From Ostreococcus lucimarinus (lineage: Eukaryota), in NCBI GenBank assembly GCA_000092065.1, contig CP000583.1: DNA of 64,000 nt; one strand, written 5' to 3'. The position numbers and the translations under genes are program-made. Of the stretch, positions 4,351 through 55,171 are shown piece after piece. Below the pieces are notes generated by a model. The model was not told the DNA's origin. It worked only from the letters and a program-made list of their open reading frames with translations, and made no database searches. Every line of letters begins with the position of its first letter. Position 1 is the first letter of the stretch.

Positions 4351-4521
4351 CGTGGCTCGCGCGCGCGCGGGAAAGTGCGGGCGAGGCGCCTCGTTCGACC
4401 GTCCCGAGGTCGGGACGCCGCGCGCGCGACGAACGCGCTCGTTCACAACGCTAATTCTACGACGACGCGTCGCGCGCTCGCGCCCGCGCGCGCTTCTGGC
4501 GTCATCCGAGTTTCGAGGCGT

Positions 4522-4884
4522 TCATCCCTCGCGCCACTGCCTCGCGCACTTGACGCACTTGTAAAACACCGACATCGGCTCGTCCGCGCTCCTGATTTGT
4601 ATCTGCATAAAGTACGCCTCGTCGTGCGCGCACCCCGGGCACGTCGCCGACGTCTTATCCACGTTTCGCCACGCGTCGTCGCCGCCCAAGACGTCGTCCA
4701 CGGTCTTCTTTCGCGCGTCCACGCGCTGTTTCACGCCGTCGACGACGTCGTACGCGTACGGGCACGACGCGCAGCGCAGCCGGACGGCGCCGCCGACGCC
4801 CGCGCCGGCGCCGGACGTCGACGCGTCCGCGGCGCCGCGCTCGAGGAGCAACAGATTCGCGCACGTCGGGCAAAAGGTGAGCAT
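4522..4884 (-). CDS. RPC10: RNA polymerase III subunit C11 (RPC10). N-terminal zinc ribbon plus a C-terminal TFIIS-type zinc ribbon.
   Basis: MLTFCPTCANLL start at a true ATG (4884). C-terminal CPGC...QIRSADEP...CVKC carries the catalytic acidic DE loop of C11/A12.2-type subunits. 120 aa. Confidence 0.7.
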   Translation of the reverse strand: MLTFCPTCANLLLLERGAADASTSGAGAGVGGAVRLRCASCPYAYDVVDGVKQRVDARKKTVDDVLGGDDAWRNVDKTSATCPGCAHDEAYFMQIQIRSADEPMSVFYKCVKCARQWREG

Positions 4885-8506: not shown

Positions 8507-11500
8507 ATGCCGGTGACCTCGTACCGGAGCGCGAGCGCCGAACTCCTGGACGCCGATCTCGTCGCGCGCGCGCGGACGTGCGACGCGCGCGCGTTTAACG
8601 CGTTCGTGAACGCGCTGGAGTCGCTGCGAGAGCGATGCGCGAGGGATGGAACGTGGTCGGAGACGCTGGCGGCGGCGAGGTGCCTGAAAGCCGCGGGCGC
8701 GGGATTCCCAGTCGACGTCCATGATGTGGAACGCGCGTTCTACGTCTCGGAGGCGTTCGCGAGGGAGTGCGTGGGGGTGGATGATGAGTGCGCGCACGAG
8801 TGGTGCGTTGGATTGTGCGCGCTGATTGATCGATACGGGGAGGATTTGGGCGGCGTCGTATGCCACTGGGAGCCGATGTTCGCGCGCGTGGAAACGTTTT
8901 TGCAGAGCGATGCGAAAGCGTATTCGGGATATGGATCGTGTAGTGCCACTCGTGCGCGTTACATGACTCTCGTGCGAAAGTGCCGTCGGTTTTTCCCGGA
9001 TGGCGCGGCGAGAGCGATTTGGGAGCGCGTGGCGGAGGATTGTCGAGCGACGGAGGACGCGAAATGCTTCGCCGGTTTAGGATTGCTACATTTGTTTACG
9101 CCGTGCATGCAAATGTCGACACCGTGTAGTGATGAATTGTTTTTCGTAGAGATGATGAATGGGGAGTGGGTGACGCTGTCGCATGCGTTAGGATCGAGTA
9201 GTTTCTGGACGTCGGGTTGGATTTCGATGTTTTCGCAGCTGGCAAAACACGACTTGAAGGGAAAAATCAACTGGAAAGGCGTGTACGATGATATGCTGAC
9301 GGTTACTTTACGTGTCATGGAACTACCGATCGGCGGTATCGAAGGGCGTCGTTCGTTCGGCCGTAAGGTGAGTTTCAAAGCCGCTATGACGTTTGGTTCG
9401 CAGCTCGAATCGCGTCGCGTGCGTACGGTGGCAAAACTCTTAGTTTACCGAGCGATGTGCGACGACGCAGTGGTTGAGTACATCGCAAAAATAATCGATT
9501 ATATCGAGCATTTTTACCACCCGAGCAGCAGCGGATCCTTTAGCGGTAATCTAGCATCTTTCCTGAGGTATCTCATCAAGTACACAAACAAATTTGTGGG
9601 GTACGAAAAACGAGTAGTACGGCCGGAGGTTCTGGCACGTTTGGTACCGGTATTCAAGCGCATAACGGACAGAGCAGTGTTCTCAAAGTCGTCTGATCTT
9701 CGGCGATACGCCGCCATCGGCATAGGTCGATTGGCGTATATGAACCCTGAACTGATATTGCCCAGCGTCATGTCACGATTTGAGGAAGCTTTAGCGCACG
9801 AAACGGCTACTCGTCAGCTCGTGCCCGCTATGAATTGTCTCACTCTATGTGTGCGACAAATTATGCTGCTTCCAACGAATACGATTTTCCAGGATGATCA
9901 GGAAGCGTATGTCAATGTCAGTGAGTTTCTTGCGTCTGCGCTCAACGCCGCTCTTCCGGGGATCGACGTTAATGATTCATCGAAAACATGTGCGACTTTG
10001 AGATTCTTTTGTGTAGTGGTCACGAATTTACCGAGATTAGTAGATGTGGGTGAAAACGGTGCGGTGTCGTGCGTCCCGATCTTATGGTCAGAGTGGACGG
10101 TGCACTTTCTTGAGCGACTGTTCACCCTGTTTGAACATTTACAACCGGACACACACGGTAGTAAGTCAGACGCCGCCGATGCGTTTAAGGGTGGTGCGCG
10201 ACACGCGGCTGGATTTCTGTTGTCTACGTCTACCATGTACTCTCCACTTCTTCGAATTTTATTCGAAAGGCTCGATCCGAGTATTCGAAGCGTCGCCATC
10301 ATGCGAGTAGCGGCGTTTATTCGCGACAACACTTTACCTGAAATTTGTGAAGAGGTCGCGCGCCTAGTCTCCGCCGCGCTTTTCGCAGATACCGAATTAG
10401 TGATTCGAGAGATCTTGCGTCCAGCTATGGTCGCGCTGGATGAAGATTTGGATTTTGAAGGTGAACTCTCAACGACGGCGGAAGCTCGCATCTTTTGGAA
10501 CTCTTGCATCTTGACAAAATGCACGGTAGCTTCAAGAGAAGCGGCACTCGCATTACGCGAAGACTTTATGAACGTGACTCGCAAGATGTTCAAAGTTAGC
10601 GAGACCTGTCGAAATCTTGATCTCATGTCTTATGCTGAACTGCATGTTAGTGCGATACTGAAAGGTCTGCTCTCTGTTGAAGTCATCGACACAGTCAAGG
10701 ACGAAGTCGAGGGAGATTCCGTTACTGATTGGGTCAATTTGAAGTGGAGACTCGATCAAGGCGGTAATGTGATTGGCGAGCAACACTTACCGACGCCTTT
10801 ATCGTGGCGTTTGCCAGGTGAAGGTGAGTTTGTAGTCGCGCAGGCAATGATTGATGAATTTCTCGTGGCGCCGGCGCACGCGTTACTCCAAGTGACGAAC
10901 GAAGATGCGATGGATTGCGACGACGCGTCTTCATCGAAGGATTGGATTAGGACGAATGTGTCAATGATGGTTGGTGCCTTGGGTGGACTCGAAGATAGGC
11001 TGAAAGACTTTTCGGACTCTGATTCAGCGCTGTTGATTACTGGACACGCGTTACCTTTCACAGACTCAACGCCCCGGACGTTGGCAGCAAGAGCACTTGT
11101 AGCGGCAATTCAAAAGACTGGTGCCGATGACACAGATACATTGAGTTTGATTTGCTCTGCGGCGAAAGCGGTGGTAAATCCCGCTCGATCTTCGTACAAG
11201 TTTCAGAAAAAGTCACTCGCTGCGTTGAACTCGATTGGATACTACTTTACACAGCCCAAAACAGGTGGGCAGCATAGCAGATACCCGAGATGGTTCGTTG
11301 CAGAGAAAGCTCGGCTGAGTTTGCACTGGCGCAACGCAATGTCCGTTTACTTTTCAGGATCTGCGTCGCCGTTCAACTTGACTGGTCCATCTTCAGATGT
11401 GAGTCGTAATGCTTTGCTGGGCTCCCTTCAAGATTTAGCCTTGAGCAAATATGTGAGCGTCCGATGCTCCGCGCTACCCGTCGTGCAGGGACTGTCTGAT

Positions 11501-13705
11501 CGATATCCGAAGGAAATCGTTCCTTTCGTCGAATTATCTGTAAAATCTCTCGCAAAGAGCGAAGAAGATGAAGACAAATGTATCGCAGCTTGTGAAGCTT
11601 TGAAAGCGCACGAAGCGCTCGGAGAGTTGTTTCGGAACGAAAGTGTGTTCGTGCCGTTCGTTGAGGCGTTGTTGGGAAGCTCGCATCACGGTACAGAAAA
11701 GGCCCAGAATGCGATCGGCGCACTTTTCTTACATTTCGCTTTATTGTTTACTCGTGGCCTATTTCATCCAAAACCACGGATTGGCATCACAGTTCTCCAA
11801 GAACGACTGCTCGCATCGCTGAAATCCGAAACTGCATTGCACTGGAGCTACGAGATGATGACAAACGCGATGAGTGTGTTTTTCGTAGACTCGCAGGATG
11901 ACCCGAAGTTTCTCGCGAGCGCAACGGAGCAGTTTATGCGGAGTATCCTCGGCGACTTGAAAGTTGTGAGGTTCCCAGCCATGTGCGCACTCCTTATGAT
12001 GAGTCGATACGAGTGTTTTGAATCGAATTGTGCGCCGATGATTCTGCGTATGATGAGCGCTGATCCAGAGTCGTCGTGTAAGTCGTTACTCGATAGTTTC
12101 GGTATCGCACACTCTGCAATCGACAACAGCGAGTCTCGCGGTAGAACCAATGGAAAAGCTGACGCTCTAATGCAAGCCGCCGAGTCGTTGTACGGTTTCG
12201 CACAGGAAATGTCTTCCGGCGGTGCAGACTGGCCAACTTCAAGGGCAGCTGACTTTTTACCACAGTCTGGTGCTTTCATCACTGCTGTCGCAAGATTTTG
12301 GCAGCTTCTCACTCGCATCGCTCCCGTTGAACTCACTACCGGTCTGCGAGCAGCCATAAAGCAAACTTCTGACGACAGCGATCGAAGTGAGAGATGCGCA
12401 ATTTCGGAAGCACTCGCTGGGGCGTTGGCGTCGCGTTCCATCACGGAAATCGATCGTCAATGGATGCAAGACACTTTCCTCAAGTACGCTTTAGATGCTC
12501 CCACCGATCAAAGAGAAGAATGGCTTAAAGGAGCGGCATGGTGCACGGATAGTGGCAATGAGAATGTTTCCGATAGCCTTCTTCGGCATCTCAGTTCAAC
12601 GCCGATGGGCACTGTGGCACAAACGGCGCGAGGGCTTGAGCTCACGCGCGTCTGCATCGCCCAGCTCGGTCACGGCCGGGGTATGGATATAAAACAATCA
12701 CTCATGGATCTCCTTGCGGATCCAACCGCTTCCCCGCTCGCGCATGAAAGCCGTCTTGTTCGCGAGACTGGCGCACAACTTGCGGCGTCTCTGCTTGCGG
12801 AATGCGATCAAGCGCTCAACGCCGCTCGTTCCAAACTCATCACCCTGTTCACGGCAGACATAGAAAATGTCGTCAATCGCGCGTTGTTGTCTGATCCAGC
12901 GCAGCCAGATGCGATCATGACACCTTCGAGAAATGCTCTCGAAGGGATCTTTTACACTTTCCTCGAACTCGTTCGTCGCGGCGATGCGTTGACAGTGGAG
13001 CCCAGTATACCTTTGATTCTTCGAGCCGCGCTACGCACCGCAGAATCCAAGGACAAAGATTTCGCCATGGTCTCCAAGCTCACCATCGCTTACTTGAAGT
13101 ATCTGAACTTTGAAAAGGTAGAGTTGCGAGCATTCACAGAGGTTCTTGGTGAGACAACACGCGATGACAATTGGCACACGCGCGCCGCAACGCTGCGATA
13201 CATCCAGGCTTTGATTTACCATCACGCTTTTACCATCGATTCGGGCTTGTTCGCGATGTTGCGCGAATGTGTTCTCGAAGCGTTGCACGACAAGCAACTG
13301 GAAGTCGCGCAATTGGCGTCGCACACACTGATGATTTTCTTGAAGGGCGTCGGCGCGGCTGATGAATCAACGTTGCGTGACAGATTTCTCAAAATCGTCA
13401 GCGTGCGACTCCCATCGGACGCCAACTCTGAGCTCATCATGCACAAACACGCGGCAGTATTAGGTTTGTCCGCGTGCGTTCTCTCCAACCCGTACGAAGT
13501 TCCCAGTTGGATGCCTGAAGTCATGGAGGCGCTCGGTTTCGCATCGCTCGAACCGTCGCCGATCAAGCAAGCCACCCAACACACGTTCGCGGAATTCAAA
13601 AAGACTCATCAGGACGCATGGACCCAAACTCGCGCCGCGTTTACGCACGAGCAATGGGAAAACGTTTCATTAGGTTTAGATCTCGCGCCTAGCTACATCA
13701 TTTAG
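8507..13705 (+). CDS. PSME4: Proteasome activator PA200/Blm10 (PSME4), 1732 aa HEAT-like repeat protein.
   Basis: C-terminal FAEFKKTHQDAWTQTRAAFTHEQW closely matches the PA200 C-terminal FKRTHQDTWQEHKQQFTDDQL region. YHPSSSG motif near residue 330. The size fits. True ATG at 8507. Confidence 0.75.
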   Translation: MPVTSYRSASAELLDADLVARARTCDARAFNAFVNALESLRERCARDGTWSETLAAARCLKAAGAGFPVDVHDVERAFYVSEAFARECVGVDDECAHEWCVGLCALIDRYGEDLGGVVCHWEPMFARVETFLQSDAKAYSGYGSCSATRARYMTLVRKCRRFFPDGAARAIWERVAEDCRATEDAKCFAGLGLLHLFTPCMQMSTPCSDELFFVEMMNGEWVTLSHALGSSSFWTSGWISMFSQLAKHDLKGKINWKGVYDDMLTVTLRVMELPIGGIEGRRSFGRKVSFKAAMTFGSQLESRRVRTVAKLLVYRAMCDDAVVEYIAKIIDYIEHFYHPSSSGSFSGNLASFLRYLIKYTNKFVGYEKRVVRPEVLARLVPVFKRITDRAVFSKSSDLRRYAAIGIGRLAYMNPELILPSVMSRFEEALAHETATRQLVPAMNCLTLCVRQIMLLPTNTIFQDDQEAYVNVSEFLASALNAALPGIDVNDSSKTCATLRFFCVVVTNLPRLVDVGENGAVSCVPILWSEWTVHFLERLFTLFEHLQPDTHGSKSDAADAFKGGARHAAGFLLSTSTMYSPLLRILFERLDPSIRSVAIMRVAAFIRDNTLPEICEEVARLVSAALFADTELVIREILRPAMVALDEDLDFEGELSTTAEARIFWNSCILTKCTVASREAALALREDFMNVTRKMFKVSETCRNLDLMSYAELHVSAILKGLLSVEVIDTVKDEVEGDSVTDWVNLKWRLDQGGNVIGEQHLPTPLSWRLPGEGEFVVAQAMIDEFLVAPAHALLQVTNEDAMDCDDASSSKDWIRTNVSMMVGALGGLEDRLKDFSDSDSALLITGHALPFTDSTPRTLAARALVAAIQKTGADDTDTLSLICSAAKAVVNPARSSYKFQKKSLAALNSIGYYFTQPKTGGQHSRYPRWFVAEKARLSLHWRNAMSVYFSGSASPFNLTGPSSDVSRNALLGSLQDLALSKYVSVRCSALPVVQGLSDRYPKEIVPFVELSVKSLAKSEEDEDKCIAACEALKAHEALGELFRNESVFVPFVEALLGSSHHGTEKAQNAIGALFLHFALLFTRGLFHPKPRIGITVLQERLLASLKSETALHWSYEMMTNAMSVFFVDSQDDPKFLASATEQFMRSILGDLKVVRFPAMCALLMMSRYECFESNCAPMILRMMSADPESSCKSLLDSFGIAHSAIDNSESRGRTNGKADALMQAAESLYGFAQEMSSGGADWPTSRAADFLPQSGAFITAVARFWQLLTRIAPVELTTGLRAAIKQTSDDSDRSERCAISEALAGALASRSITEIDRQWMQDTFLKYALDAPTDQREEWLKGAAWCTDSGNENVSDSLLRHLSSTPMGTVAQTARGLELTRVCIAQLGHGRGMDIKQSLMDLLADPTASPLAHESRLVRETGAQLAASLLAECDQALNAARSKLITLFTADIENVVNRALLSDPAQPDAIMTPSRNALEGIFYTFLELVRRGDALTVEPSIPLILRAALRTAESKDKDFAMVSKLTIAYLKYLNFEKVELRAFTEVLGETTRDDNWHTRAATLRYIQALIYHHAFTIDSGLFAMLRECVLEALHDKQLEVAQLASHTLMIFLKGVGAADESTLRDRFLKIVSVRLPSDANSELIMHKHAAVLGLSACVLSNPYEVPSWMPEVMEALGFASLEPSPIKQATQHTFAEFKKTHQDAWTQTRAAFTHEQWENVSLGLDLAPSYII

Positions 13706-20071: not shown

Positions 20072-22624
20072 CTAATAGGGATCGACGTTCGGGCAATTTT
20101 GCGCCCAGTGTCCTCGTTCACCGCACTTGAAGCACGCGTTGTCGTTGCCGTCGCGCTCGGCGCGCGTTCTACGTCGCCCACCGTTTGCGGCAGCGCCGCG
20201 GCCTCCCGCTCGGCCACCACGACCTCTTCCGCGACCGGCACCGTTCACTTGCGGTGGAGCTTGACGCACGGGAGATACTCTCGCGACAGGTTGTTCTTCC
20301 GCTTGACAAGCGCGCAAAAATTGCTGGAACTCTCCACTGCAAAACACGCATCCGCTCCAACGTTGCATGTGCTGCTGGCCCGCAGGCATGTGGATGAGAG
20401 CAAACTTGAATAGCAGTAACTGACTTTGACATCGACACGATTCGGGTTCGATGGTAATGTTTCGCGTGCACTTGGGCATGACTACTCTGTGAGCACAATG
20501 TGCCGCCTCGCACGAAACCGTGAATGTTGAAATATTTCTCGCCCCTATCGTCGATCGCAACGTGGATTCGCCTTGACAACTCGGACAACGCTCTCGAACA
20601 ACACCAACAACATCACCTGCCATTTGTTGAGCAACGTTTACTCTTGCATTATTCACGTGTCCATTCATATGCTCGACTCCGCCGCCACGATCTCCGCCGT
20701 TCATGTACGATCCGACGGTGTTTGTCAACATGTTTTCATCAGTCGCGACACGGTCGTAAGCTTGCAGCATAGTTTGTAAATGCAGTCGCAAACCTGCGTT
20801 GGGATCCATCCGGTTGTGTGCGACAGCGTCTACATCCGCTTCCATCTTTGCTCGTTTCGTCGGCAGCCACATGTCCGCGACTCCCATTCGATCGTAGGCG
20901 AGAACCAGCGCTTCCCCTAGCTCTGTCGGCATCAATCTGTTATCGCCCACTTTTCGAGCGTATCCTCGTTCGCCAACTACTTTTTCTATGTGCTGCGCCT
21001 GCGTAGCGTCTGTTCCGATCATGTGTGACTCCATGAGCGAAAGCAAATCCACCTCGCTGAGATAATCTGGAGGTCTCGTCGATCCTTCGTGTAAATTCAG
21101 AGTTGGGACAAATTGTTCTCCTGGGGTGTACACAGGCAGCGTGCTATTGCCCCAGTTATCGTAAGTCGGCGCTAACCGTGGACCTTCAGGAGGACCAGGG
21201 CCGTAGATATCCAAATAGTTACGTTCACGAATCATCACGCCTGTCGCACGGAAGGTTTCGCCGGCGATGTCGACATCCACGTGCGTCTTCAACGCCACAG
21301 CTGGATATGAACATGTGGCCAAAAAGTGCCTGCAGACGAACTCGTACACTTTAGGGGCGTTGTGGTTTTTGTTGCGCATTTGAGCGTACTGTGCATCCGT
21401 GGCGAGCTTGGTTGGGTAGATGGGGGGATGCGCTTTGTCATCCTTGGTGCCGCCCGGAGGTCGTCGAAACTGCCCGCCTGTCGTCAATCGCTCGACGTAA
21501 AAACCAAACTGCGGGTGCTGATGCATCTCGCGCAGCGTTCCATCGTAATCGAAATCATTTGGAAATTTGTCTGTCTCCGTGCGCGGATAAGAGATGAAAC
21601 CATCGTTGTACAAGTCCTCAGCAATCTTCATAATTTGCTCGGGGGAAATGCGCAACACTCTATTCAAGCGCTTTTGCATCTCAATGGTGTTCAAGGGATG
21701 CGGTGGCCAACGTTTGCTTTCTTGCCCGTCCACGTCGATGACAGTGGCAGAGTTGGCCCGCACGCACAGGTCATGCAACGCAGAGGCGAAAGCACGATCG
21801 AACAACCTTCCGCGGCTCCATTCAAACTGCGTCGTTGTGCCTTCGCGAGAATGCGAACACTTGATGGCCCAGAAATCTTCGCTCACGTGCGCATCAATGT
21901 CCCACTTCCTTTGCACGATGAAACCGAGCGTGGGAAATTGACACGGCCCGTACGACACGATCGATTTGCCTTTATCGTCTACCGGCAGCCCCACGCCTGC
22001 GCGCTGCAACGCCAACGTGTTGAATCGCGTAAACGCCGCGCCGAGTCTCAAATCCAACTCCATGCGCATATCTACCGCCTTGGACTCGTGTTGGTTCGGT
22101 TCCACGAGATTCGTCAACGCTCGGTCGGCATCACCCCGACTCAGCGCCGAAAACCGCGCTCGAAACGCAGCGATGCCCCGATTCGCTTCTCGACACGCCG
22201 CGAGCACCTCAAACGCGATATTCTCTCCCTCGCGATCGCAATCCAACCATAAAATCACCGAATCGCACCCTCGCGCCTCTCGTTTCACATTATCAGCCAC
22301 CTGTCTCTTATCCTCCGGCACCCGCTTCGCCACCGCCGCGTTCACGAGCAGCTCTCGCGGATCGACGCCGTTCCACCGTCTGTGCCTGTCGTCGGCGAAT
22401 TCAAAATTACTCAAGTGCCCCGTCACCGACGTGAACACCATCGTCACCCGCCGACCGCGCACTTCGTACGGGAATTCCCAGACTTTATTATACCTCGACG
22501 TCCCTTCGCGCGCGCTCGCGCGTCCGTTCGACAGCACGCGCGAGATCTCTTTCGCCACCGATGGTTTCTCAGCCACGTTCAACACGCGCGCGCCGATCGC
22601 TCCGCGCGCGCTCTGGCGCTGCAT
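20072..22624 (-). CDS. TOP3A: DNA topoisomerase III alpha (type IA) with C-terminal GRF/CCHC zinc-finger tail.
   Basis: Toprim N-terminus (VLNVAEKPSVAKEIS...MVFTSVTGHL), topo IA core, and a C-terminal CFKCGERGHWAQNCP zinc knuckle. True ATG. Confidence 0.9.
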   Translation of the reverse strand: MQRQSARGAIGARVLNVAEKPSVAKEISRVLSNGRASAREGTSRYNKVWEFPYEVRGRRVTMVFTSVTGHLSNFEFADDRHRRWNGVDPRELLVNAAVAKRVPEDKRQVADNVKREARGCDSVILWLDCDREGENIAFEVLAACREANRGIAAFRARFSALSRGDADRALTNLVEPNQHESKAVDMRMELDLRLGAAFTRFNTLALQRAGVGLPVDDKGKSIVSYGPCQFPTLGFIVQRKWDIDAHVSEDFWAIKCSHSREGTTTQFEWSRGRLFDRAFASALHDLCVRANSATVIDVDGQESKRWPPHPLNTIEMQKRLNRVLRISPEQIMKIAEDLYNDGFISYPRTETDKFPNDFDYDGTLREMHQHPQFGFYVERLTTGGQFRRPPGGTKDDKAHPPIYPTKLATDAQYAQMRNKNHNAPKVYEFVCRHFLATCSYPAVALKTHVDVDIAGETFRATGVMIRERNYLDIYGPGPPEGPRLAPTYDNWGNSTLPVYTPGEQFVPTLNLHEGSTRPPDYLSEVDLLSLMESHMIGTDATQAQHIEKVVGERGYARKVGDNRLMPTELGEALVLAYDRMGVADMWLPTKRAKMEADVDAVAHNRMDPNAGLRLHLQTMLQAYDRVATDENMLTNTVGSYMNGGDRGGGVEHMNGHVNNARVNVAQQMAGDVVGVVRERCPSCQGESTLRSTIGARNISTFTVSCEAAHCAHRVVMPKCTRNITIEPESCRCQSQLLLFKFALIHMPAGQQHMQRWSGCVFCSGEFQQFLRACQAEEQPVARVSPVRQAPPQVNGAGRGRGRGGRAGGRGAAANGGRRRTRAERDGNDNACFKCGERGHWAQNCPNVDPY

Positions 22625-22887
22625 CGCGCTCGCTCGCTACGCGCGTCTTCTGCGGTCGTCGCGAGCGTCGAGCGCGGAATCACGCGTCGAGCGCGCGAAG
22701 CATCGCGTCGTCGAATGCGGAACTGAGCACCTCGCGCTCGGTTCCGCCAGTGCGCCGCGCGCGACGTTCGCGAGCACGCGCGCGCGCGAGCGCGACGCCG
22801 CGCGCGCGTGGTGTGACGGTTGAGACGCGCGCGAGCGGTAAACGCGCCGAACGCGACGTTGAACGGGGCGATTGATTGATTTGACTC

Positions 22888-24537
22888 ATGGCTAACCGTC
22901 GACCCATGAACGCGGCGCAACGACGCTACGACGCCTGGCGCGCGGCGCTGCTCGGAGAGGAAACGCAAGAAGAGATGTTCTTTCGTCGCGTGGCGTACGA
23001 ACGCGCGAGGACGCGCGCGCTCGGAGCCAAGTGGGCGAGAGGGGATGACGTCGACGCGGCGAACGAAGACGCGCGCCGAAGCGTCGCGATGGACGTCGAG
23101 CGATTGCCGAACGAAGACCCCGTGCGAGCGTCGCAAATGTGCGTGACGGCGCTGAAGAGGATATTGCTGACGCACGCGTGTGGAAGCGGAGGGAAGCGAG
23201 GATATAGGCAGGGGATGCACGAGGTGGCTTCGATGGTGTTGGAGACGCGCGCTTCGGCGGCAGAGTATTCAAAGGCGGCGACGGGGACGGTGCGATGGGA
23301 TCGTCGGGACGATGAGGAGAAATACGACGACGGTGATGGATTGTTTGCGACGACGTCGTACGATGAGCGCGAAATTGCGAGCGCAGGGTCGAGAGATTAT
23401 CGATTCGTCGAGCACGACGCGCACGCGCTATTCGAGGCGTTCATGGGAGACGCTCGCAGCGAACGGGACGACGAGCGCTTGGCGTTGGGGACGTATTACG
23501 AAGACGCCACGACGCCGACGTCGCCAATTTGCGCGGCGTTCCGTAGAATAGAAAACGCGCTGCGTTCGTTGGATGAAAATTTGGCGAAAAAGTTAGTCAA
23601 GATGGAAGTCGAGCCGCAGCTGTATTTGCTTCGGTGGTTGCGGCTCGGCTTTGGGCGCGAATTCCACCGTCGAGATGTCTTGACTTTGTGGGATGCGATA
23701 TTCGAGTCGTTGTCGGCCACGATCGGAGAGAACGGGGAGACCATGTCGAGTCGCGACTTTTACGAAGGTATCGCGGTGAGTGTGTTGATGACGATGCGAA
23801 ACGATATCTTGAGCCTCGACGATTTCGGCGCCGTGATGAGTCGATTGCAAAACGTGCCGCCGGGGATTCAAATGCAACACATGGTCGCGCGTGCGAAGGC
23901 GATGGCTGTCACTGGATTACTCAAGTACGATGAAACGGATGGGATGAAGATCTTCACGTCGCGAAAGCCTCCGCATCGATCATCACCGAATCGTCTCGTC
24001 GTGCCCCATATTCGCGGGAAGGCACCCCCGAGCGTCCAGACGATCGCGCGTTGGGACAGCGACGCCAGCGTGGACGGAAGCATCGACAGTCTGAGCGTCC
24101 AAGCCGATGACGACGACGACGACGCGCGAGAAGACACATCATCCTCGCGACCGGCGAGCGACGCAATCGAGCGCGTGGAATCGCTGACGTTGCGCGTTCC
24201 TTCGCCGACGACGACGCGCCGCGCGCCCACCGCCGACGACGACGACCCATTCACGGGTTCAATCTTCGCCGCGACTCCATCGATTCCATCCCACGCCGAT
24301 TCTCCCACCGCCTCCGTCCTCCGCGAGACGTCTTCGCGCATCAACGACGCCCTCGGCGTCGCCCGCGCGCCTCCCGCGGCGTCGAGCGCCCGTTCGCGCG
24401 CCGACGCCGCCGACCACCTCCGCCTCGCCCTCGCCGCGCTCAACGACGCCATCGCCGCGTCTCCCGAGCGCGAGGTCCACGTCCTCGCCGCCGACGCCGC
24501 GGCGCTCGCCGCGTCCGCGCTCGAGCGTCTCGAATAG
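22888..24537 (+). CDS. TBC-domain Rab GTPase-activating protein (TBC1D5-like) with an acidic/Ala-rich C-terminal tail.
   Basis: YRQGMHEVASMVL (YxQ finger motif region) and LLRWLRLGFGREF TBC signatures. Confidence 0.65.
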   Translation: MANRRPMNAAQRRYDAWRAALLGEETQEEMFFRRVAYERARTRALGAKWARGDDVDAANEDARRSVAMDVERLPNEDPVRASQMCVTALKRILLTHACGSGGKRGYRQGMHEVASMVLETRASAAEYSKAATGTVRWDRRDDEEKYDDGDGLFATTSYDEREIASAGSRDYRFVEHDAHALFEAFMGDARSERDDERLALGTYYEDATTPTSPICAAFRRIENALRSLDENLAKKLVKMEVEPQLYLLRWLRLGFGREFHRRDVLTLWDAIFESLSATIGENGETMSSRDFYEGIAVSVLMTMRNDILSLDDFGAVMSRLQNVPPGIQMQHMVARAKAMAVTGLLKYDETDGMKIFTSRKPPHRSSPNRLVVPHIRGKAPPSVQTIARWDSDASVDGSIDSLSVQADDDDDDAREDTSSSRPASDAIERVESLTLRVPSPTTTRRAPTADDDDPFTGSIFAATPSIPSHADSPTASVLRETSSRINDALGVARAPPAASSARSRADAADHLRLALAALNDAIAASPEREVHVLAADAAALAASALERLE

Positions 24538-24720
24538 CCAAGTCGCGATCCCCCCTCGCGCGTCGAGGGGGGGGGAACAGAGACGATCCATCTCCTCGAC
24601 GTCGCCCCGAGCCGTCGCGCGCGCGCGACCGCAATATCTCGCGCGCGATCTCGGACGCGCGTCTCGCGGGTGCGTGAAAAAAGCGACGGAACGCGCGCGC
24701 GCGACGCGCGATTCGCGATT

Positions 24721-24721
<1 letters not shown>

Positions 24722-24758
<37 letters not shown>
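24722..24758. repeat. (GACGC)n microsatellite, ~7 units, within the spacer upstream of the 24863 gene.
   Basis: gacgcgacgcgacgcgacgcgacgcgacgcg, visible directly in the sequence. Confidence 0.8.
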
Positions 24759-24763
<5 letters not shown>

Positions 24764-24862
24764 ATCGCGCGCGAATCGCCCGCGGCCATCGAGCGCTGAC
24801 TCATTAACTGACGAATTCACGAAACGCAGACGCGCGACGCGGAACGCGGAACGCGCGACGCG

Positions 24863-27154
24863 ATGGCCGACGTCGAGAGTGGAAAAACGAACGTCGCTCG
24901 CGTGCGCGACGATGAGGTCGCGCGCGCGGGACGAAGGACGGGCTGGGCGCTGGTCGCGCTGTCGGCGCTCATGGCGGCGTTTTGCCTGAGCCTGATGGCC
25001 GTCTTCGCGAAGGAGATGGCGGACGTCGCGGGAGATCACTGCGCCGAGTACGGGGTGTCGTTCAGTGGAGATGGGTCGACGTGTCAGTACGTGAAGGAAA
25101 ACTGGTGCGCGGCGATTAATACCGCGGGCGGCTCGGTGAGCGTCGGGTGCTCGTCGGGGGCGACGTTCGCGGACCCGGAAACGTACACGCAAAATACGTG
25201 TCCGCAAGGATGCTCTGGGGCGTGCGATGGAAGCGCTAGCGATACGAACGCTGCGGTCGCGTCGTGGAAGTCTCAGATCAAGCGGCTGCAGCAGTGCTAC
25301 GCCAACTCTCCGAAGTCTCGTCAGTGCTTGCCGACCGTGGATACCGACGGCAGTTTGGCCAACTACCGAGGTTTCAAGGCGGCGCATCCATCGCTCGGAT
25401 TGGGCGGAAGTACGGCTTTTATCGCGCGAGACGCGTTTTTGGACGCCTGCGATGCACAATTAGTGTACGCAAACCGTCGCCAAACCGGAGGATACGGTGT
25501 TTTGGCCATGATGTGCGTCGCGCTTCTCGTCTGGATTATCAGGTGCGCGCTCACTTTGCGAAAGCCGAATTACTCAAAGCGTCCTCGAGAGACGGAAATG
25601 AAGCCTCTCACGACGTTCAGCGAGAAGAAAAGCTTCAACAACCGTTATCACCCGGATTCAGTGTGGATATGGTACTCTTTCGTGACGGCCATGTTCGGTT
25701 TCGCCGTGCAATTATACTCCTTCTACACGCCGACGACGACGGACATTCGCATCCCAATCGCGCAAGGGGTGTGGATCACCTTGGAGATCGTCACCCGCGC
25801 TGTTTTGACGCTCTTGGACAAGTTCACCTTGGTCGAGGCGAGTGCTATCTTCTTTGACATCGGTTTCTCCACCGTGGGTTTCACCGCGCTTTTGGAACCC
25901 TTCTTCGAGCCAAAGATTACGGACACACTTCCCGAAGTCGACGAATCCATCACGGATTACGCTTTGGCCATTCGAGTCGTTTCTTTCATCTATCCGCTCT
26001 GCGCTTCGTCGTTGAAGGTGCGAGATCTTTACGTCGACAACTTCTGGCCCGCCCCCGCCACGGCCAAGGCGATGACGGAAAAGAAGCGATCGTTCAAGAG
26101 GACCATCATCAAGCTCGTCTTGCTCGGTTTGCAACTCGGCGCCGCCATGTCTGTGTACGGCATTATGGGCAACAAAGAGCTCTGCCATCAATTCCGCACG
26201 TGTGCTCGCGGTAGTTGTACCCCCAACGTACCCGTCGGTGCGCCTCTCGATGCGGAACTCTTCGGCGGAGGCTCTACCGGTGATAATATGAAGTATGCCG
26301 CTCGCATGATCTCGGACGATGGCACGATGATCTGGCGTTGGGGAATCAACTCGAACACGCAAATGAAGATGACCAAGTCGGGCGGCAAGTTATACGCTGA
26401 CCTTAAATTTGCTATCCCGAACGGCGCGACGGAGAACGGCGTCTCGATTCCAGGCAATGGGGCGACCTATACCGTCAGCGGACTCACAGCCCCGACTTCA
26501 GCGTGTGGTACTCGCTACGAAGTCCAGTGCCAAGAGGTGAACCCGCGTCACTCCTTCTCGTATATGACGGGCAAGTACGAATGGGTCAAGTACAACACAT
26601 CGGCGTACAAGTTTGTCGCGAGACACGACTACGAACAGACGACTGGTTCTCCCTCTTGCTTCGGCGCCTCGACGCAGTGGTGGAAAGACAACGGCATGTT
26701 TGTCGGCGGTCCGGAAGCCGTCGTCGGAGGCACGGCGCAAAATCCAGATCTTGGATTCGTCTTCGAGGAGCAAAAGTGCTGGTACACAGCAGGAGGCACA
26801 ACGACTTTTACCAAGTACTGCTTGGTTGCGCCCGCTTACCTCGGTGTCTTTAAACCGTTCGGTCGCGCATCCGTCGTTGGTTCGTGGACATGGTCGAACT
26901 CGGGCTCGTCGATGCCGACCACGTGGGGCACGTCTGCGCTCGACTTCAGGTTGGTCATGAACGAGAACCAAATCATCGCCGCCGGCGGCTCTAGCTCGGG
27001 CAGCGCTGGCGCTGGCGGTTGCCCGACGTCCTTCAGCGCGTCGGCGCCGTGTCCGTGCCCTCCGGCGGGCGTCACATGTACCGCTCCCGGCGCCGGCGCG
27101 TGCACCCAAAACAACGGCTGCCCGAGCTTTTACACGGCGCCGACCGGCAAGTAA
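24863..27154 (+). CDS. Orphan multi-pass membrane protein (~6 predicted TM segments). Cys-rich N-proximal ectodomain and a Gly/Ser/Thr/Trp-rich C-terminal domain ending in a Cys-Pro-rich tail.
   Basis: 763 aa non-repetitive ORF with a true ATG. Hydrophobic stretches WALVALSALMAAFCLSLMAVF, GVLAMMCVALLVWIIRCAL, VWIWYSFVTAMFGFAVQLYSF and IIKLVLLGLQLGAAMSVYGIMG. No known family recognised. Confidence 0.5.
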   Translation: MADVESGKTNVARVRDDEVARAGRRTGWALVALSALMAAFCLSLMAVFAKEMADVAGDHCAEYGVSFSGDGSTCQYVKENWCAAINTAGGSVSVGCSSGATFADPETYTQNTCPQGCSGACDGSASDTNAAVASWKSQIKRLQQCYANSPKSRQCLPTVDTDGSLANYRGFKAAHPSLGLGGSTAFIARDAFLDACDAQLVYANRRQTGGYGVLAMMCVALLVWIIRCALTLRKPNYSKRPRETEMKPLTTFSEKKSFNNRYHPDSVWIWYSFVTAMFGFAVQLYSFYTPTTTDIRIPIAQGVWITLEIVTRAVLTLLDKFTLVEASAIFFDIGFSTVGFTALLEPFFEPKITDTLPEVDESITDYALAIRVVSFIYPLCASSLKVRDLYVDNFWPAPATAKAMTEKKRSFKRTIIKLVLLGLQLGAAMSVYGIMGNKELCHQFRTCARGSCTPNVPVGAPLDAELFGGGSTGDNMKYAARMISDDGTMIWRWGINSNTQMKMTKSGGKLYADLKFAIPNGATENGVSIPGNGATYTVSGLTAPTSACGTRYEVQCQEVNPRHSFSYMTGKYEWVKYNTSAYKFVARHDYEQTTGSPSCFGASTQWWKDNGMFVGGPEAVVGGTAQNPDLGFVFEEQKCWYTAGGTTTFTKYCLVAPAYLGVFKPFGRASVVGSWTWSNSGSSMPTTWGTSALDFRLVMNENQIIAAGGSSSGSAGAGGCPTSFSASAPCPCPPAGVTCTAPGAGACTQNNGCPSFYTAPTGK

Positions 27155-27390
27155 CCGACGCCTCCGCCGCGTCGAATCTCCAAGAACTTCTCCAACTTTT
27201 CAAGCGTGTCGATCTCCCGCACCGCGGAGAAGAAAATCAAGTCAACAATGGTAACGATAAGGATTTCACCAGTCCGGCCACGATCAAGCAAGTAAAGTAA
27301 CCCACTCCGCTCCGACGCGTTTGTCAATCCAACGCGCCGACGTATGTATACCAGCCGCCGCCACGCGCCTCGCACACACCGTCGCGCGCG

Positions 27391-28986
27391 ATGTCCGCAT
27401 CCTCCCGCAAGCGTAAACCCGACGCCGCGACGCTCCTAGAGACTCGCACGGACGCCGCCCGCATCGTCAGCGCGCTCCTCGCCGCCGCATCCCGACGCCA
27501 ACGCGGCTCGAGCATCAAATCGCTCACGCTCGCCGCGAACGTTCAACACAAACGCGCGACGCACGCGGTGACGTGTGAGACGATAAAACGCGTTAAAATA
27601 ATCAAACGTCTGTTTGCGGAATGTGCCGATGCGTCGGGCGCGCTCGAAGCGCTAGCGAGCGATGCGAGAACGGTGTCCAAAGGGAAAGACGGGGACGACG
27701 CGTGGAGAGCGCGAGGCGAGGCGTACGTGTACGCGTACGATTTGATGTTTGGTGATTCCAGACAGTTGGATCGATGGCGAGGGAACGATGGGGGGTGTGA
27801 TGTCGTGCGAGGTAATGCGGTAGCGTTGAAAGAAGCGCTCGAACGCGCGATGGCGCGAGAAGGGGTGAAGACGGTGAAGGAATTCGAGGACAAGAGCGTC
27901 GCGAGCGCGGCGCGGTATTCGCGCACGGCGAGGGTGAATACGCTGAAAACGACGGTGGATGAAGCGATGGAGGCGTTTCGAGAGGATGGATACGAGTGCG
28001 CGGTGGATTCTTTGATCGATACGCTGTTGGTTTTTCCCGCGGGGACGGATTTGCACGCGCACAAACTCGTAAAGACGGGCGCGGTGGTTTTGCAAGGACG
28101 GGCGAGTTGCTTACCGGCCGTTGCGTTAGCGCCCGAACGCGGGTGGGCGTGCATTGACGGTTGTGCCGCGCCTGGGAATAAGACGACGCAGTTGGCGGCG
28201 TTGGTCGGGCGTGAGGGTGGAGTGTACGCATTCGACGCCGACGCGAGACGATTGAAGCGATTGAAGGAGAACGCGGCGACGACGGGGAGTCAAGGGATTA
28301 TTCGAGCAAAGTGCCAAGACTTTCTCACGGTGGATCCAGGTAACACCGTGTACGCAAGCGTGCGAGCGCTGTTACTCGATCCATCGTGCTCGGGGTCGGG
28401 AACGGAGGTCAATCGCGGAGATATCATGCTCCGCGACGCCTTAGATGAAGACGACGTGGAAGAAATCGACGCCGAAGCCGACGCCGACGAAGAGCGCGTC
28501 GACAAGCTCGCTGCGTTTCAAAAGTCAGTATTAAAACACGCGTTCTGTTTCCCCGAAGTCGAGCGCGTGTCGTACAGCACATGCAGCGTGCACGAGAAGG
28601 AAAACGAAGAAGTTGTTCGCGACGTCATGGACGTTGCCGTGGAACACGGTTTTAAGCTTGCCCACGCGCTTCCAAAGTGGCATCGCAGAGGTATCGCCAT
28701 CGACGGATTGTCCACCGAGGACGCGCGATGCCTCATTCGAGCCGATCCGATCGAAGACGACATGGAGGGGTTTTTTGTCGCCATCTTTGAGCGAGACGTC
28801 GAACGCACGCGAAGCAAGGGTATTGGGTTGCCCGCTTCGAATCCGAACGCCGCCGAATCGGCGCTTCAACACAAGAAGAAGCGACCCGCCCTGGACGCTT
28901 CGACGGCGCGGCCGGTGTACGCCGCCGCGAAGTCGTCCAAGAAAAAGTCAAAGAGCGGTGGCAAACCGACGCCACTGTTCAGATGA
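27391..28986 (+). CDS. NSUN5: NSUN5/Rcm1-type 25S/28S rRNA (cytosine-C5)-methyltransferase.
   Basis: GSIKSLT, VTCETIKR, RVNTLKT, LLVFPAGTDLHAHKLVKTGAVVLQGRASCLPAVAL, CIDGCAAPGNKTTQLAALV and LLDPSCSGSG all match NSUN5 blocks. Confidence 0.9.
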   Translation: MSASSRKRKPDAATLLETRTDAARIVSALLAAASRRQRGSSIKSLTLAANVQHKRATHAVTCETIKRVKIIKRLFAECADASGALEALASDARTVSKGKDGDDAWRARGEAYVYAYDLMFGDSRQLDRWRGNDGGCDVVRGNAVALKEALERAMAREGVKTVKEFEDKSVASAARYSRTARVNTLKTTVDEAMEAFREDGYECAVDSLIDTLLVFPAGTDLHAHKLVKTGAVVLQGRASCLPAVALAPERGWACIDGCAAPGNKTTQLAALVGREGGVYAFDADARRLKRLKENAATTGSQGIIRAKCQDFLTVDPGNTVYASVRALLLDPSCSGSGTEVNRGDIMLRDALDEDDVEEIDAEADADEERVDKLAAFQKSVLKHAFCFPEVERVSYSTCSVHEKENEEVVRDVMDVAVEHGFKLAHALPKWHRRGIAIDGLSTEDARCLIRADPIEDDMEGFFVAIFERDVERTRSKGIGLPASNPNAAESALQHKKKRPALDASTARPVYAAAKSSKKKSKSGGKPTPLFR

Positions 28987-29083
28987 TTTCGGCTCGGCCG
29001 GCGCGAGAAAACTAGTATTAGGAAAGGAATATCGTTAGCATTAGAATAGCTAGATGTAGTAGTAGCGCGGCGGAAGACGTCGT

Positions 29084-29863
29084 TTAGTCTTCTTCCCAGG
29101 TCAACGCCTCCTTGACGTACTTGACGCCGAGCCCGAGCGACGTCAACGCGATGGGCGCCGCGCCCGCTTGCCAAGGCATATCCGGCGCGTACGCCACCCC
29201 ACGAGACATCAACGCCGCCGCGAGCGGAATCGAGCACACCGCGAGCAATTCGCCGTTCACAATCTTCGTGATTCGCGTCGCCAACTTTTCGCTCATCGGC
29301 TCCACTTCGCCCTTCGCCTTGGCCGCCGCGCGTCCGATAATTTTAATCGTCGGGAACAACGACGAGCTCCCCATCACGGTGAACAGCCACATCTTCACCC
29401 AGAAAATCGGTTCATGACTGTAGAACTCCCATCCTTTACCGTATTCCGTCGCTCGCAGGTACCCGGTGTACAGCACCAGCACTCCCGCGATGCCGTAGAT
29501 GGAATCCGCGACGACGAGTCGCTGTTCCTCCGCTTCGCTCATCCCAGCCTTCACCGTCCACTTCTCCGTCGTCAGCGCCCCGACGACCAAGACGAGACCC
29601 AAGTAGTGTCCGTACGCCGCGAACGCGCTCGCCACCGGGTCCACCGCGGCGTGCGCCGCGCCGGCGGCGAGCGTCGTCGCGAGCGCCGGCGTCGCCACCG
29701 CGAGCATCTTTTTCGCATCCTCGGCGCGCGTTTCGAGCGACACCGCATCGCGATCGCCGCGCGCGGGCGCGCGCGCGCGCGCGGCGACGCATCGTCGCGT
29801 CGTCGCGCGGGCGAACGACGCGCGGGGCGTCGTCTTGAGCGCGTTCGTGGATAACGAAAGCAT
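29084..29863 (-). CDS. Predicted organellar membrane protein (possibly DUF2214-like) with a transit-peptide-like N-terminus.
   Basis: ATG at 29861-29863 gives MLSLSTNALKTTPRASF..., followed by 3-4 hydrophobic helices (PIFWVKMWLFTVMGSSSLFPT). The upstream ATG at 29977 is an alternative start but crowds the neighbouring gene. Confidence 0.4.
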   Translation of the reverse strand: MLSLSTNALKTTPRASFARATTRRCVAARARAPARGDRDAVSLETRAEDAKKMLAVATPALATTLAAGAAHAAVDPVASAFAAYGHYLGLVLVVGALTTEKWTVKAGMSEAEEQRLVVADSIYGIAGVLVLYTGYLRATEYGKGWEFYSHEPIFWVKMWLFTVMGSSSLFPTIKIIGRAAAKAKGEVEPMSEKLATRITKIVNGELLAVCSIPLAAALMSRGVAYAPDMPWQAGAAPIALTSLGLGVKYVKEALTWEED

Positions 29864-30054
29864 GGCGACGCGCGAGAGAATGACGTCGGCACGGAGTGGA
29901 TAAAGCGTCCCGCGCCTCTCCGCGACGCGCGACGCGCGCGACGACGGCGCGGACGACGGCGTCGCGCGGCGTCGCATTCGAGCGCGCGCGCGCGCGCGCG
30001 CCCGCGCGCGCGAGCGGGCGTCGACGCGGAACGCGCGCGCGTCGAGCGCGCGCG

Positions 30055-51775: not shown

Positions 51776-51813
51776 CTTTATAGATTATAATTACAACGCT
51801 TAGACTAGTAGTA

Positions 51814-54800: not shown

Positions 54801-54924
54801 GTCTTCGCGAGCACTCCGCGAAGAGCTCGGGCTTCACGAGCACGACGTCCTCCTCCGGGAAAGCCTTCACCATGACGATTCGCGGCGGTGGTACCCACGC
54901 CGGGTCTTCAGAACGACGCGCCAT
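51814..54924 (-). CDS. Orphan large protein (~1035 aa): globular N-terminal ~750 aa, a coiled-coil segment and a single C-terminal TM (tail-anchor-like). GC is markedly lower than the surrounding genes.
   Basis: Uninterrupted ORF. ATG at 54922-54924 (MARRSEDPAWVPPP). C-terminal MVMFILNMLWWFALGASF hydrophobic helix. No family recognised. Confidence 0.5.
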   Translation of the reverse strand: MARRSEDPAWVPPPRIVMVKAFPEEDVVLVKPELFAECSRRRYLALSDGVKSRFAQAHASSRTKYRKLWRRLLVHMQTSLAMAKALTKLELLRTNTARGHRLDVAGLALIAMYDNYTKKIDQMLSKQMQESLQKAMDSKMEKDKVIAQSLLELETNDEKSGEDFNPMAIMRALRKHSAQKPTKKQFQGSEEEIGVEHTRLLFLVSVYTADANRDAFPGLAEDSELWVRKTQLLVLIYECIRAGALNYDYAPLAETMGSKRVWLNISQEGVDDLDDMCQVGFLSSMKMSSTKYSTSTAYRLTKEGYLHLKTHLRRRDRAAIEEVVYSDKLQPSPRNLFVAKWDAKADTFYLQSASGHTKSSDVTDIEEVSYVSSPFVPKSMRKWGRECTSNKHKTAALVKATGTIRDELDEQLSFDRLRLMVGEWIPMGANQVLSLNDKLGSTDRVAGGYFTSEMDKDPNNPCFQGKVDGLTRVNVLDFEETSYVNFEAEVQYEEEPGIVQIENFGIHVSEEGFMLYGLTLDGMMKVTDGNNFSLDHLARLLRDIGTDSSEVIGNLLTDHQRHLLDLVHMGDAMNREKFNVFFTSRINKRGQEEMPMAHELLDMEDMENEIRQIIGEVECGFQLSRDDELIIIGSTGMILCSKNTEKFEPLVLQYMSMMSRNMFIQALYRQTFVTVDTLGEIDHLIRNHDADPNNIFKIRELMSNVSADIILMREIHSYLLESLTETAPMAINDQVLKRLSKILQLDDTNFRLERRIRDIRKSLDGASGELQALKSAADVIQENKEFKVNEAVSNNTQNLEEVFRANERASTSLEIMQVVLAGSLAFAILDRLHGLYLGVAADIDWSVKAFDWYVQTPMVMFILNMLWWFALGASFNRLIKYAGSKSAGILSIRYTMNCRFNQKAMTAFLHVANPEMEDGEADARTNLKKFTWDETDEIRWKGCPPKIEMIVDMKNGFLLSVFIQIATRRSKCTQSDAKRHFFARLRELGLISGPVPGLETAKDAEYVYRKPFLSRGAKFKLWLKKTRENVHYFFTF

Positions 54925-55171
54925 GATCTTCCGCGCGCGTCGGTCCGTCCTGCGTCGCTCGCGCGCGTCCTCAACGACCGATTCCAAAAATCAAATTGAA
55001 TTCTCAATCAGCCCAACGACTGACGATCGACGCAGCGCCGCGCTCCCGCTCGATCGCGCGCCCTCGCGCGCGCGCTTAACGCTCGCGCGCGTCCTCGGCG
55101 AGCTTTTCGCGCGTCGAACACCGCGCAAAGCGCGCGTCGTCGCGTAATGCAGCGATGATGTCCCGCGCACG

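Follow-up and report, generated by a model that had tools for sequence, protein, structure and literature searches.

A conserved single-copy gene of Ostreococcus lucimarinus encodes a seven-helix membrane protein of an undescribed family with a predicted calycin-like C-terminal barrel

Introduction

The closest described folds to the protein treated here are the calycin-type barrels, which include lipocalins, YceI-like polyisoprenoid binders, the bile-salt sensors VtrC and ToxS, the N-degron receptors Gid4 and Gid10, and APCDD1. Many of these folds form a cup for a ligand, which is a small hydrophobic molecule, haem or the end of a peptide, and VtrC, ToxS and APCDD1 are membrane-tethered sensors or lipid binders. 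Among cysteine-rich domains, the Frizzled-type domain has 10 Cys, is mainly helical and binds lipids. Seven-helix membrane proteins include the G-protein-coupled receptors (GPCRs), in which the N-terminus lies outside and the C-terminus inside. To our knowledge, next to nothing has been learned of the proteins at the cell surface of Ostreococcus, its relatives and other picoalgae without a wall. Here, we analysed a 64,000-nucleotide stretch of the O. lucimarinus genome (assembly GCA_000092065.1, contig CP000583.1; hereafter the window) and, within it, one gene at 24863-27154 on the plus strand (hereafter the target).

The building blocks of the target protein (bundle of membrane helices, disulfide-rich ectodomain, calycin-like barrel) are of known kinds, whereas neither the way they are combined nor the topology nor the family has been described. 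Like the calycins, its residues from about 474 to 700 are predicted to form an antiparallel up-and-down barrel, and like VtrC, ToxS and APCDD1, this barrel would be tethered to the membrane on the extracytoplasmic side. Unlike the calycins, with which it shares 3-13% identity, no sequence similarity and no Pfam match, the domain of the target begins with a Cys knot, contains four conserved disulfides and a long, conserved WW loop at aa 590-625, and is about twice as large as a lipocalin; the barrel is joined to a seven-helix protein and is neither secreted nor single-pass. We tentatively favour the view that the protein is a ligand-binding glycoprotein of the secretory pathway or cell surface, acting as a receptor or ligand-transfer device and not as an adhesin or a classical transporter.

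Results and discussion

A conserved single-copy gene

24863-27154, plus strand: target gene, complete single exon of 763 codons with an ATG start; stop codon at 27152-27154

The window has a GC content of 59%, and long spurious open reading frames (ORFs) lie on all frames around the target; such ORFs are frequent in DNA of this composition, so ORF length alone is no proof of a gene. The 763-aa ORF is a real gene, as demonstrated by its homologues, colinearity, substitution pattern and gene order. First, a protein search of 5.8 billion sequences found 27 homologues with 43-99% identity, and an exhaustive search of 1.84 billion cluster representatives with the target profile gave 62 matches, 47 of these below 1e-10. 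Second, the orthologues share the N-terminus MADVE with the target and are colinear with it through the end of the C-terminal domain, and an in-frame stop is located 21 codons 5' of the ATG; the true ATG start and the coordinates given in a preliminary description of the locus are thereby confirmed. Third, the ratio of non-synonymous to synonymous substitution rates (dN/dS) is 0.185 against the 54%-identical orthologue at locus L004, and 18 Cys columns are conserved across both ectodomains. Finally, the window from 16859 to 35151 matches one metagenome contig at 99.45% identity with identical gene order (ERG4/24, Top3 (Toprim), RabGAP-TBC, target, NSUN5-type methyltransferase, DUF2214, DUF1749, FHA, Rubisco LSMT and Vps15-like kinase), and this order is also retained around an 87%-identical (85% by BLASTP) and a 54%-identical orthologue. 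No paralogue was found by tblastn in the 64-kb window, where the target is thus single-copy.

Around the target, from 20072 to 29977, synteny with loci L001 and L004 persists although the target orthologues are only 54% identical, and in the relatives L003 (GC 0.69) and L007 the orthologue occupies another neighbourhood. The neighbouring Top3 gene combines the Toprim domain with a CCHC zinc finger. Three Arg/Ala-rich ORFs overlap the target on the minus strand, at 24440-25459 (339 aa), 25712-26362 (216 aa) and 26498-27109 (203 aa), and are typical frame artefacts of high-GC DNA; at L002, a gene caller predicted a similar 106-aa ORF across the start of the orthologue (4488-4808).

Seven membrane helices and their predicted orientation

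Kyte-Doolittle (KD) hydropathy gave seven hydrophobic segments (aa 30-48, 212-230, 266-287, 299-321, 326-344, 363-384 and 411-436), and a full-length AlphaFold2 (AF2) model built from 21 sequences has seven long helices matching them, with a mean predicted local distance difference test score (pLDDT) of 69.5 and a predicted template-modelling score (pTM) of 0.63. The protein therefore has seven transmembrane (TM) helices, TM1 to TM7, at about the positions listed below, instead of the six that had been counted before; the earlier picture of several membrane spans, with one Cys-rich ectodomain behind TM1 and a large second ectodomain at the C-terminus, is retained. The following parts precede the C-terminal domain:

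24863-24943, plus strand: predicted cytoplasmic N-terminus, aa 1-27, with conserved D16..V19..G23-R-R-T26 (alignment A1); basic residues precede TM1
24944-25009, plus strand: TM1, predicted signal-anchor helix, aa 28-49 (KD peak 2.46 at aa 30-48; AF2 helix 16-53)
25010-25492, plus strand: predicted ectodomain 1, aa 50-210, with 10 Cys (10 Cys columns conserved in at least 50% of A1, most of them invariant)
25493-25558, plus strand: TM2, aa 211-232 (KD peak 2.38; AF2 helix 210-232)
25559-25663, plus strand: basic loop, predicted cytoplasmic, aa 233-267, with a mean K+R of 8.7 and the motifs R.PNY.K.PRE and R.HP.S
25664-26170, plus strand: five-helix core TM3-TM7, aa 268-287, 296-318, 321-347, 365-385 and 411-436 (hydropathy, AF2 and alignment)

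Basic residues cluster at aa 1-27, in the loop at aa 233-267 (the K+R value listed being the family mean) and at aa 386-412 (5.2), and the short loops at aa 288-298 and 348-364 are neutral or acidic. The positive-inside rule predicts an inner N-terminus and an outer C-terminus (N-in/C-out), and both large domains would be extracytoplasmic. This orientation agrees with the even Cys counts of ectodomain 1 (10) and the C-terminal domain (8), with the only family-wide N-glycosylation sequon, N578-T-S, which falls in the C-terminal domain, and with the position of a 4-Cys module that is found in ectodomain 1 or behind the C-terminal domain of distant relatives, as are putative ShK-like repeats behind that of P0129. 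As both domains should face the lumen or the outside, the protein would travel the secretory pathway, and the cell surface is its most likely location. In some distant relatives, the equivalent of TM1 resembles a cleavable signal peptide (P0092 and P0102 begin directly with the hydrophobic segment), and the loop after TM2 is far longer and of low complexity.

Ectodomain 1 carries its conserved Cys columns at 60, 74, 82, 87, 113, 117, 120, 145, 155 and 196. The Cys-rich strings noted previously (CAEYG, CQYVKENWCAA, CSSG and CPQGCSGACDG) are located at aa 60-122, between the hydrophobic segments 30-48 and 212-230, as had been described. The first half of the domain (aa 50-130) is variable, with a column consensus of 0.45, whereas the second half (aa 131-210) is highly conserved (0.76) and closes with the juxtamembrane motif FLDACDAQ.VYA.RR directly before TM2. 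C117, C121, C145, C155 and C196 are invariant even in relatives of 20% identity. In the AF2 model, the domain is mainly helical but poorly modelled (pLDDT 55-67). Like the Frizzled cysteine-rich domain, ectodomain 1 has ten conserved Cys and, in this low-confidence model, is predicted to be mainly helical. Unlike that domain, its Cys span 137 residues and no Pfam Fz match appeared at E values up to 10. A large first outer loop with disulfide bonds behind TM1 is also a feature of claudin/LHFPL/Cav-gamma proteins, pannexins and connexins, and XK-related (XKR) scramblases, but their helix number and topology differ from those of the target, and no Pfam matches to them were found. The XKR fold has eight TM helices plus two re-entrant helices. 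Since designed soluble helix bundles score as high, the structural match of the target to four-helix-bundle and XKR proteins is generic.

A predicted calycin-like barrel behind TM7

The remainder of the protein is made up as follows:

26171-26977, plus strand: predicted C-terminal ectodomain, aa 437-705, with 8 conserved Cys; Cys knot, then modelled up-and-down beta-barrel
26594-26602, plus strand: N-glycosylation sequon N578-T-S, present in 21 of 21 sequences and the only sequon conserved in the family
26978-27151, plus strand: variable Gly/Ser/Pro/Cys-rich tail with CPCPP, aa 706-763 (consensus 0.25; predicted disordered, pLDDT about 27)

The C-terminal domain opens directly after TM7 with the Cys knot C441-H-x-F-R-T-C447-x4-C452 and contains the motifs QCQE.NPRH, YKFVA, WW606-607 and PYGR. 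When aa 437-710 were modelled alone, using a 36-sequence alignment that included distant relatives, the model reached a pLDDT of 88.1 and a pTM of 0.86. From this model, the best description of the domain is a calycin-like barrel that is elaborated, stapled by disulfides and without a close solved relative. The two juxtamembrane motifs, before TM2 and after TM7, belong together with the Cys framework, Q283 and P378 to the few positions that survive down to 20% identity.

Composition had already been noted as a feature of this region, and the C-terminal 327 aa (437-763), given earlier as about 330, are indeed rich in G (12%), T (10%), S (8%), W (3.4%) and Y (4.5%). The CPCPP motif reported at the very end is present at aa 730-734, but it lies 30 residues short of the C-terminus, within the variable disordered tail.

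Absence of a described family

No Pfam family scored above its gathering cut-off for the target, NCBIfam gave 0 matches, and PDB sequences gave nothing significant with the single protein or with two profiles; nothing significant was found among PDB folds either. When 36 family members were searched singly against Pfam, no consistent family appeared, and 10 distant members matched none. Models of Lipocalin, YceI or related Pfam families matched neither the target (E values up to 10) nor the 36 members (E values up to 1). For viral sequences, none of 35 pattern matches in IMG/VR was confirmed by tblastn, and a Foldseek search of BFVD gave no viral fold match at E values of 0.001 or below; with both searches negative, a viral origin or mimicry of the target was rejected. 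Literature searches found no paper on the family. Thus, no known family fits the target, in line with the preliminary description, and neither an absence of TM helices nor homology to a characterised transporter family, either of which would have contradicted it, was observed.

Several weak matches were also examined and rejected. The Pfam model TMEM132_C scored 19.7 bits against a cut-off of 27 (E value 0.00073), covered only TM2 and its basic flank, and was judged compositional. MFS_1 matched 6 of the 36 members below the cut-off, with a best E value of 0.0043, and looks compositional as well. Among PDB sequences, a PQQ-propeller-like motif, 'DG..KWRW' (E value 0.4), and CALHM2 (E value 0.11) were insignificant, and weak profile matches to A2A-BRIL fusions (E values of at least 0.35) sit in an Ala-rich loop.

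Other seven-helix proteins were compared in the same way. No 7tm Pfam model of GPCR classes A-F matched the target, and its predicted N-in/C-out topology is opposite to that of GPCRs. Families that do share this orientation, the insect OR/GR-type 7TM ion channels and the PAQR/AdipoR proteins, have folds and Pfam signatures that were not found in the target; Orco/OR and AdipoR structures are present in the PDB.

GOLD-domain seven-transmembrane (GOST) proteins (TMEM87A/B, GPR107/108, GPR180 and Wntless) share their list of parts with the target. Two sources describe them as trafficking factors with a luminal ligand-recognition domain (PMC9711517, PMC11605061). Following this logic, the target could be an endomembrane cargo receptor or biogenesis factor, whose luminal beta domain binds cargo while the seven-helix body cycles between the Golgi and the surface. 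Like GOST proteins, it has a beta-rich domain predicted to be extracytoplasmic, a seven-helix body and no cytoplasmic signalling domain, and its single-copy, housekeeping-like conservation would suit such a role. However, the order and topology are reversed: the beta domain of the target is C-terminal and its orientation N-in/C-out, whereas in GOST proteins the beta domain is N-terminal and the orientation N-out/C-in (PMC9711517, PMC11605061). Neither Lung_7-TM_R nor GOLD was matched in Pfam, the modelled domain is an up-and-down barrel and not a GOLD-type beta-sandwich, and no GOLD beta-sandwich was found in a luminal N-terminal position ahead of a 7-TM body. We regard a cargo receptor of this kind as quite improbable.

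Proposed mode of action

Ligand binding is proposed for the head of the protein since the nearest folds of the barrel are taken as ligand cups, several of which are membrane-tethered. The parts would then be arranged in the following order: a short cytoplasmic N-terminus, the signal-anchor TM1, a helical ectodomain with five disulfides, a six-helix core (TM2-TM7), the extracytoplasmic calycin-like barrel with four disulfides and one conserved N-glycan, and a flexible Cys/Pro/Gly tail. The two ectodomains may contact each other and together form a head on the membrane core, and this head would be clamped to the core by the invariant juxtamembrane motifs FL..C.A..YA.RR before TM2 and C..FRTC...C after TM7. 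By analogy with the nearest folds, the barrel may serve as a cup for a small ligand, which could be a hydrophobic molecule or the end of a peptide or glycan. Occupancy of the cup could be relayed through the polar-lined helical core, or the ligand could be handed over to it.

Some observations weigh against this proposal. First, the AF2 model of the whole protein is of no more than moderate confidence (pLDDT 69.5), and ectodomain 1 reaches only pLDDT 55-67, so the packing of the ectodomains is tentative. Second, the cytoplasmic parts are short and no signalling domain was recognised by Pfam, which weakens the case for a classical receptor. Third, the protein could be located in the Golgi, endoplasmic reticulum or vacuole instead of the plasma membrane. 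Ligand binding by the modelled barrel is putative.

Furthermore, the membrane core is the most conserved part in the close family, which would suit a transporter or channel equally well. In such a protein, the polar-lined TM3-TM7 would be the permeation or translocation path, and the ectodomains would only gate it or select the substrate. The outside loops of this core are short and acidic, the inside loop at aa 386-412 is basic, and conserved polar residues are found at Q283, Q301, R312, D332, E345, E349 and Q424; of these, Q283, R312, D332, E345, E349 and Q424, polar or charged and placed in helices or at helix ends, would support a path. The TM helices and short loops are the best conserved in the close family (consensus 0.76-0.83) and the slowest evolving, with a ratio of non-synonymous to synonymous differences per site (pN/pS) of 0.19 against the sister locus L002, and the acidic motif ALxExFxE at the outer end of TM5 is retained in distant relatives. 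On the other hand, no transporter or channel family was identified by Pfam in the 36 members, the MFS_1 matches being those rejected above. Intramembrane residues other than Q283 and P378 are not invariant across the wide family, and the internal repeat or inverted-repeat symmetry typical of carriers is missing. Considering these points together, a transporter or channel is a less likely alternative to a ligand-binding receptor or transfer device.

Evolutionary rates of the exposed parts

Rates were compared with the closest sister, L002, which has 93% DNA identity over 9.1 kb (target dS 0.13; pairwise Nei-Gojobori estimates). The dN/dS of the target was 0.59, compared with 0.27 for RabGAP-TBC and 0.145 for NSUN5. 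Replacements were concentrated in the ectodomains, with 94 non-synonymous and 37 synonymous changes, compared with 18 and 22 in the TM and cytoplasmic parts (Fisher P = 0.0024). To avoid circularity, columns were sorted by how conserved they are in the other 19 sequences; the C-domain columns that vary elsewhere then had a pN/pS of 1.35 against L002, not significantly above 1 (P = 0.25). Fourteen members of the 90%-identity cluster around the target share 97-99% protein identity and contain no hypervariable region. What the data show is a constrained scaffold with exposed loops under weak constraint; they do not demonstrate positive selection or an arms race.

These rates bear on a possible recognition or attachment molecule, acting in gamete or cell-cell recognition or serving as a prasinovirus attachment site, whose exposed loops diversify under conflict. 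The elevated dN/dS relative to the neighbouring genes, the accumulation of replacements in the ectodomains, the pN/pS of the variable C-domain columns and the variable, mucin-like C-terminal tail would all be expected of it. However, relaxed constraint on the loops explains the pattern equally well, given that the excess above 1 is not significant, and a single-copy, syntenic gene with almost no amino-acid polymorphism among the 14 cluster members is unlike typical arms-race loci. No viral homologue or structural mimic was found in IMG/VR or BFVD, no adhesion-type repeats (Ig, FN3, cadherin, EGF or LRR) were detected by Pfam, and the C-terminal domain is a predicted barrel, not an array of such repeats; the likeness to receptor-like or adhesion proteins suggested earlier is therefore putative. 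The resistance of O. tauri to OtV5 has reportedly been ascribed to a glycosyltransferase-rich outlier chromosome (PMC5082852), which also counts against this explanation. A recognition molecule is therefore improbable in our judgement.

A bolder form of the ligand-binding proposal, which we likewise hold to be improbable, is that the target represents an unrecognised class of N-in/C-out seven-helix surface proteins of marine picoeukaryotes. The barrel would capture one specific molecule from outside, with lipidic and isoprenoid compounds, vitamin or pigment precursors and infochemicals as examples, and would then signal through the core or deliver the molecule to it. In a variant of this reading, the exposed loops would double as a prasinovirus attachment site.

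The family and its significance

The close family comprises sequences of 43-60% identity in the wider picoalgal sequence set, with loci of GC 0.55-0.69, and a profile search found full-length distant relatives of 830-1070 aa with 20-25% identity and an unchanged order of parts. The target was previously called an orphan, a term not justified for a gene that is single-copy in related genomes, stands there in a shared order (Top3, RabGAP-TBC, target, NSUN5 and DUF2214) and has relatives of the same architecture. The distant relatives occur in other compact eukaryotic genomes, and one of them lies on a 21-kb contig beside eukaryotic genes (prenylcysteine lyase, Costars and JmjC). None of the distant relatives carries a name or a Pfam domain, and cluster look-ups returned 'hypothetical protein' or nothing. 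When they were included in an iterated profile search, it brought up no further members, nor any with an additional annotated domain. These results are best explained by a family without a name that is confined to marine picoeukaryotes. An origin in Mamiellophyceae would be consistent with the composition and GC content, with genes that are compact, poor in introns and confined to single exons, and with the green-lineage neighbours.

The 90%-identity cluster around the target has 372 members; the sequences closest to the target are thus abundant in marine metagenomes, and the organism carrying it is presumably widespread. On present evidence, the target is one of many lineage-restricted proteins without an assigned function. 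The present analysis corrects the topology, delimits the family together with its diagnostic motifs and supplies a confident model of the domain. Being conserved, single-copy and predicted to be exposed, with a modelled barrel of a ligand-binding type, the protein is a candidate for sensing nutrients or infochemicals, for taking up a ligand or for the attachment of viruses. Its gene is a clean knockout or tagging candidate in relatives amenable to genetics, for example O. tauri, in which homologous recombination can be used.

Variation among distant relatives

Distant relatives carry a 4-Cys module, CxG(x3-6)C(x3-8)D(x2-5)C(x4-14)CxW, in one to five copies and usually at the extreme C-terminus. 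Carriers are P0094 (aa 826-996), P0098 (902-966), P0092 (904-1019), P0105, P0120, P0122, P0104, P0111, P0113 and P0099, and in P0105 the module occurs once inside ectodomain 1 (aa 184-207). Against Pfam, it gave only a weak match to Paramecium surface antigens, in two members, and it may be an undescribed extracellular mini-domain. P0129 has four repeats of another kind behind the barrel (aa about 190-400), with the pattern C.DD......C........C......CC.SC..C, which look ShK-like by eye. Three further products, P0015, P0016 and P0020 (561, 561 and 526 aa), which were called on 0.8-1.3 Mb contigs of three chromosome-scale assemblies, halt near profile position 537 with unrelated end residues, the end of P0015 being ...GARCAVRALRCNVRK. 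A genuinely shorter protein is less likely here than a frameshift, an intron or an assembly error within the C-terminal domain of these records.

Base composition of the window

The GC content falls to 0.47-0.50 at 10001-12000 and 50001-54000, compared with a window mean of 0.59. The second of these stretches coincides with two long ORFs, at 49097-51775 (plus strand, 892 aa) and 51814-54987 (minus strand, 1057 aa).

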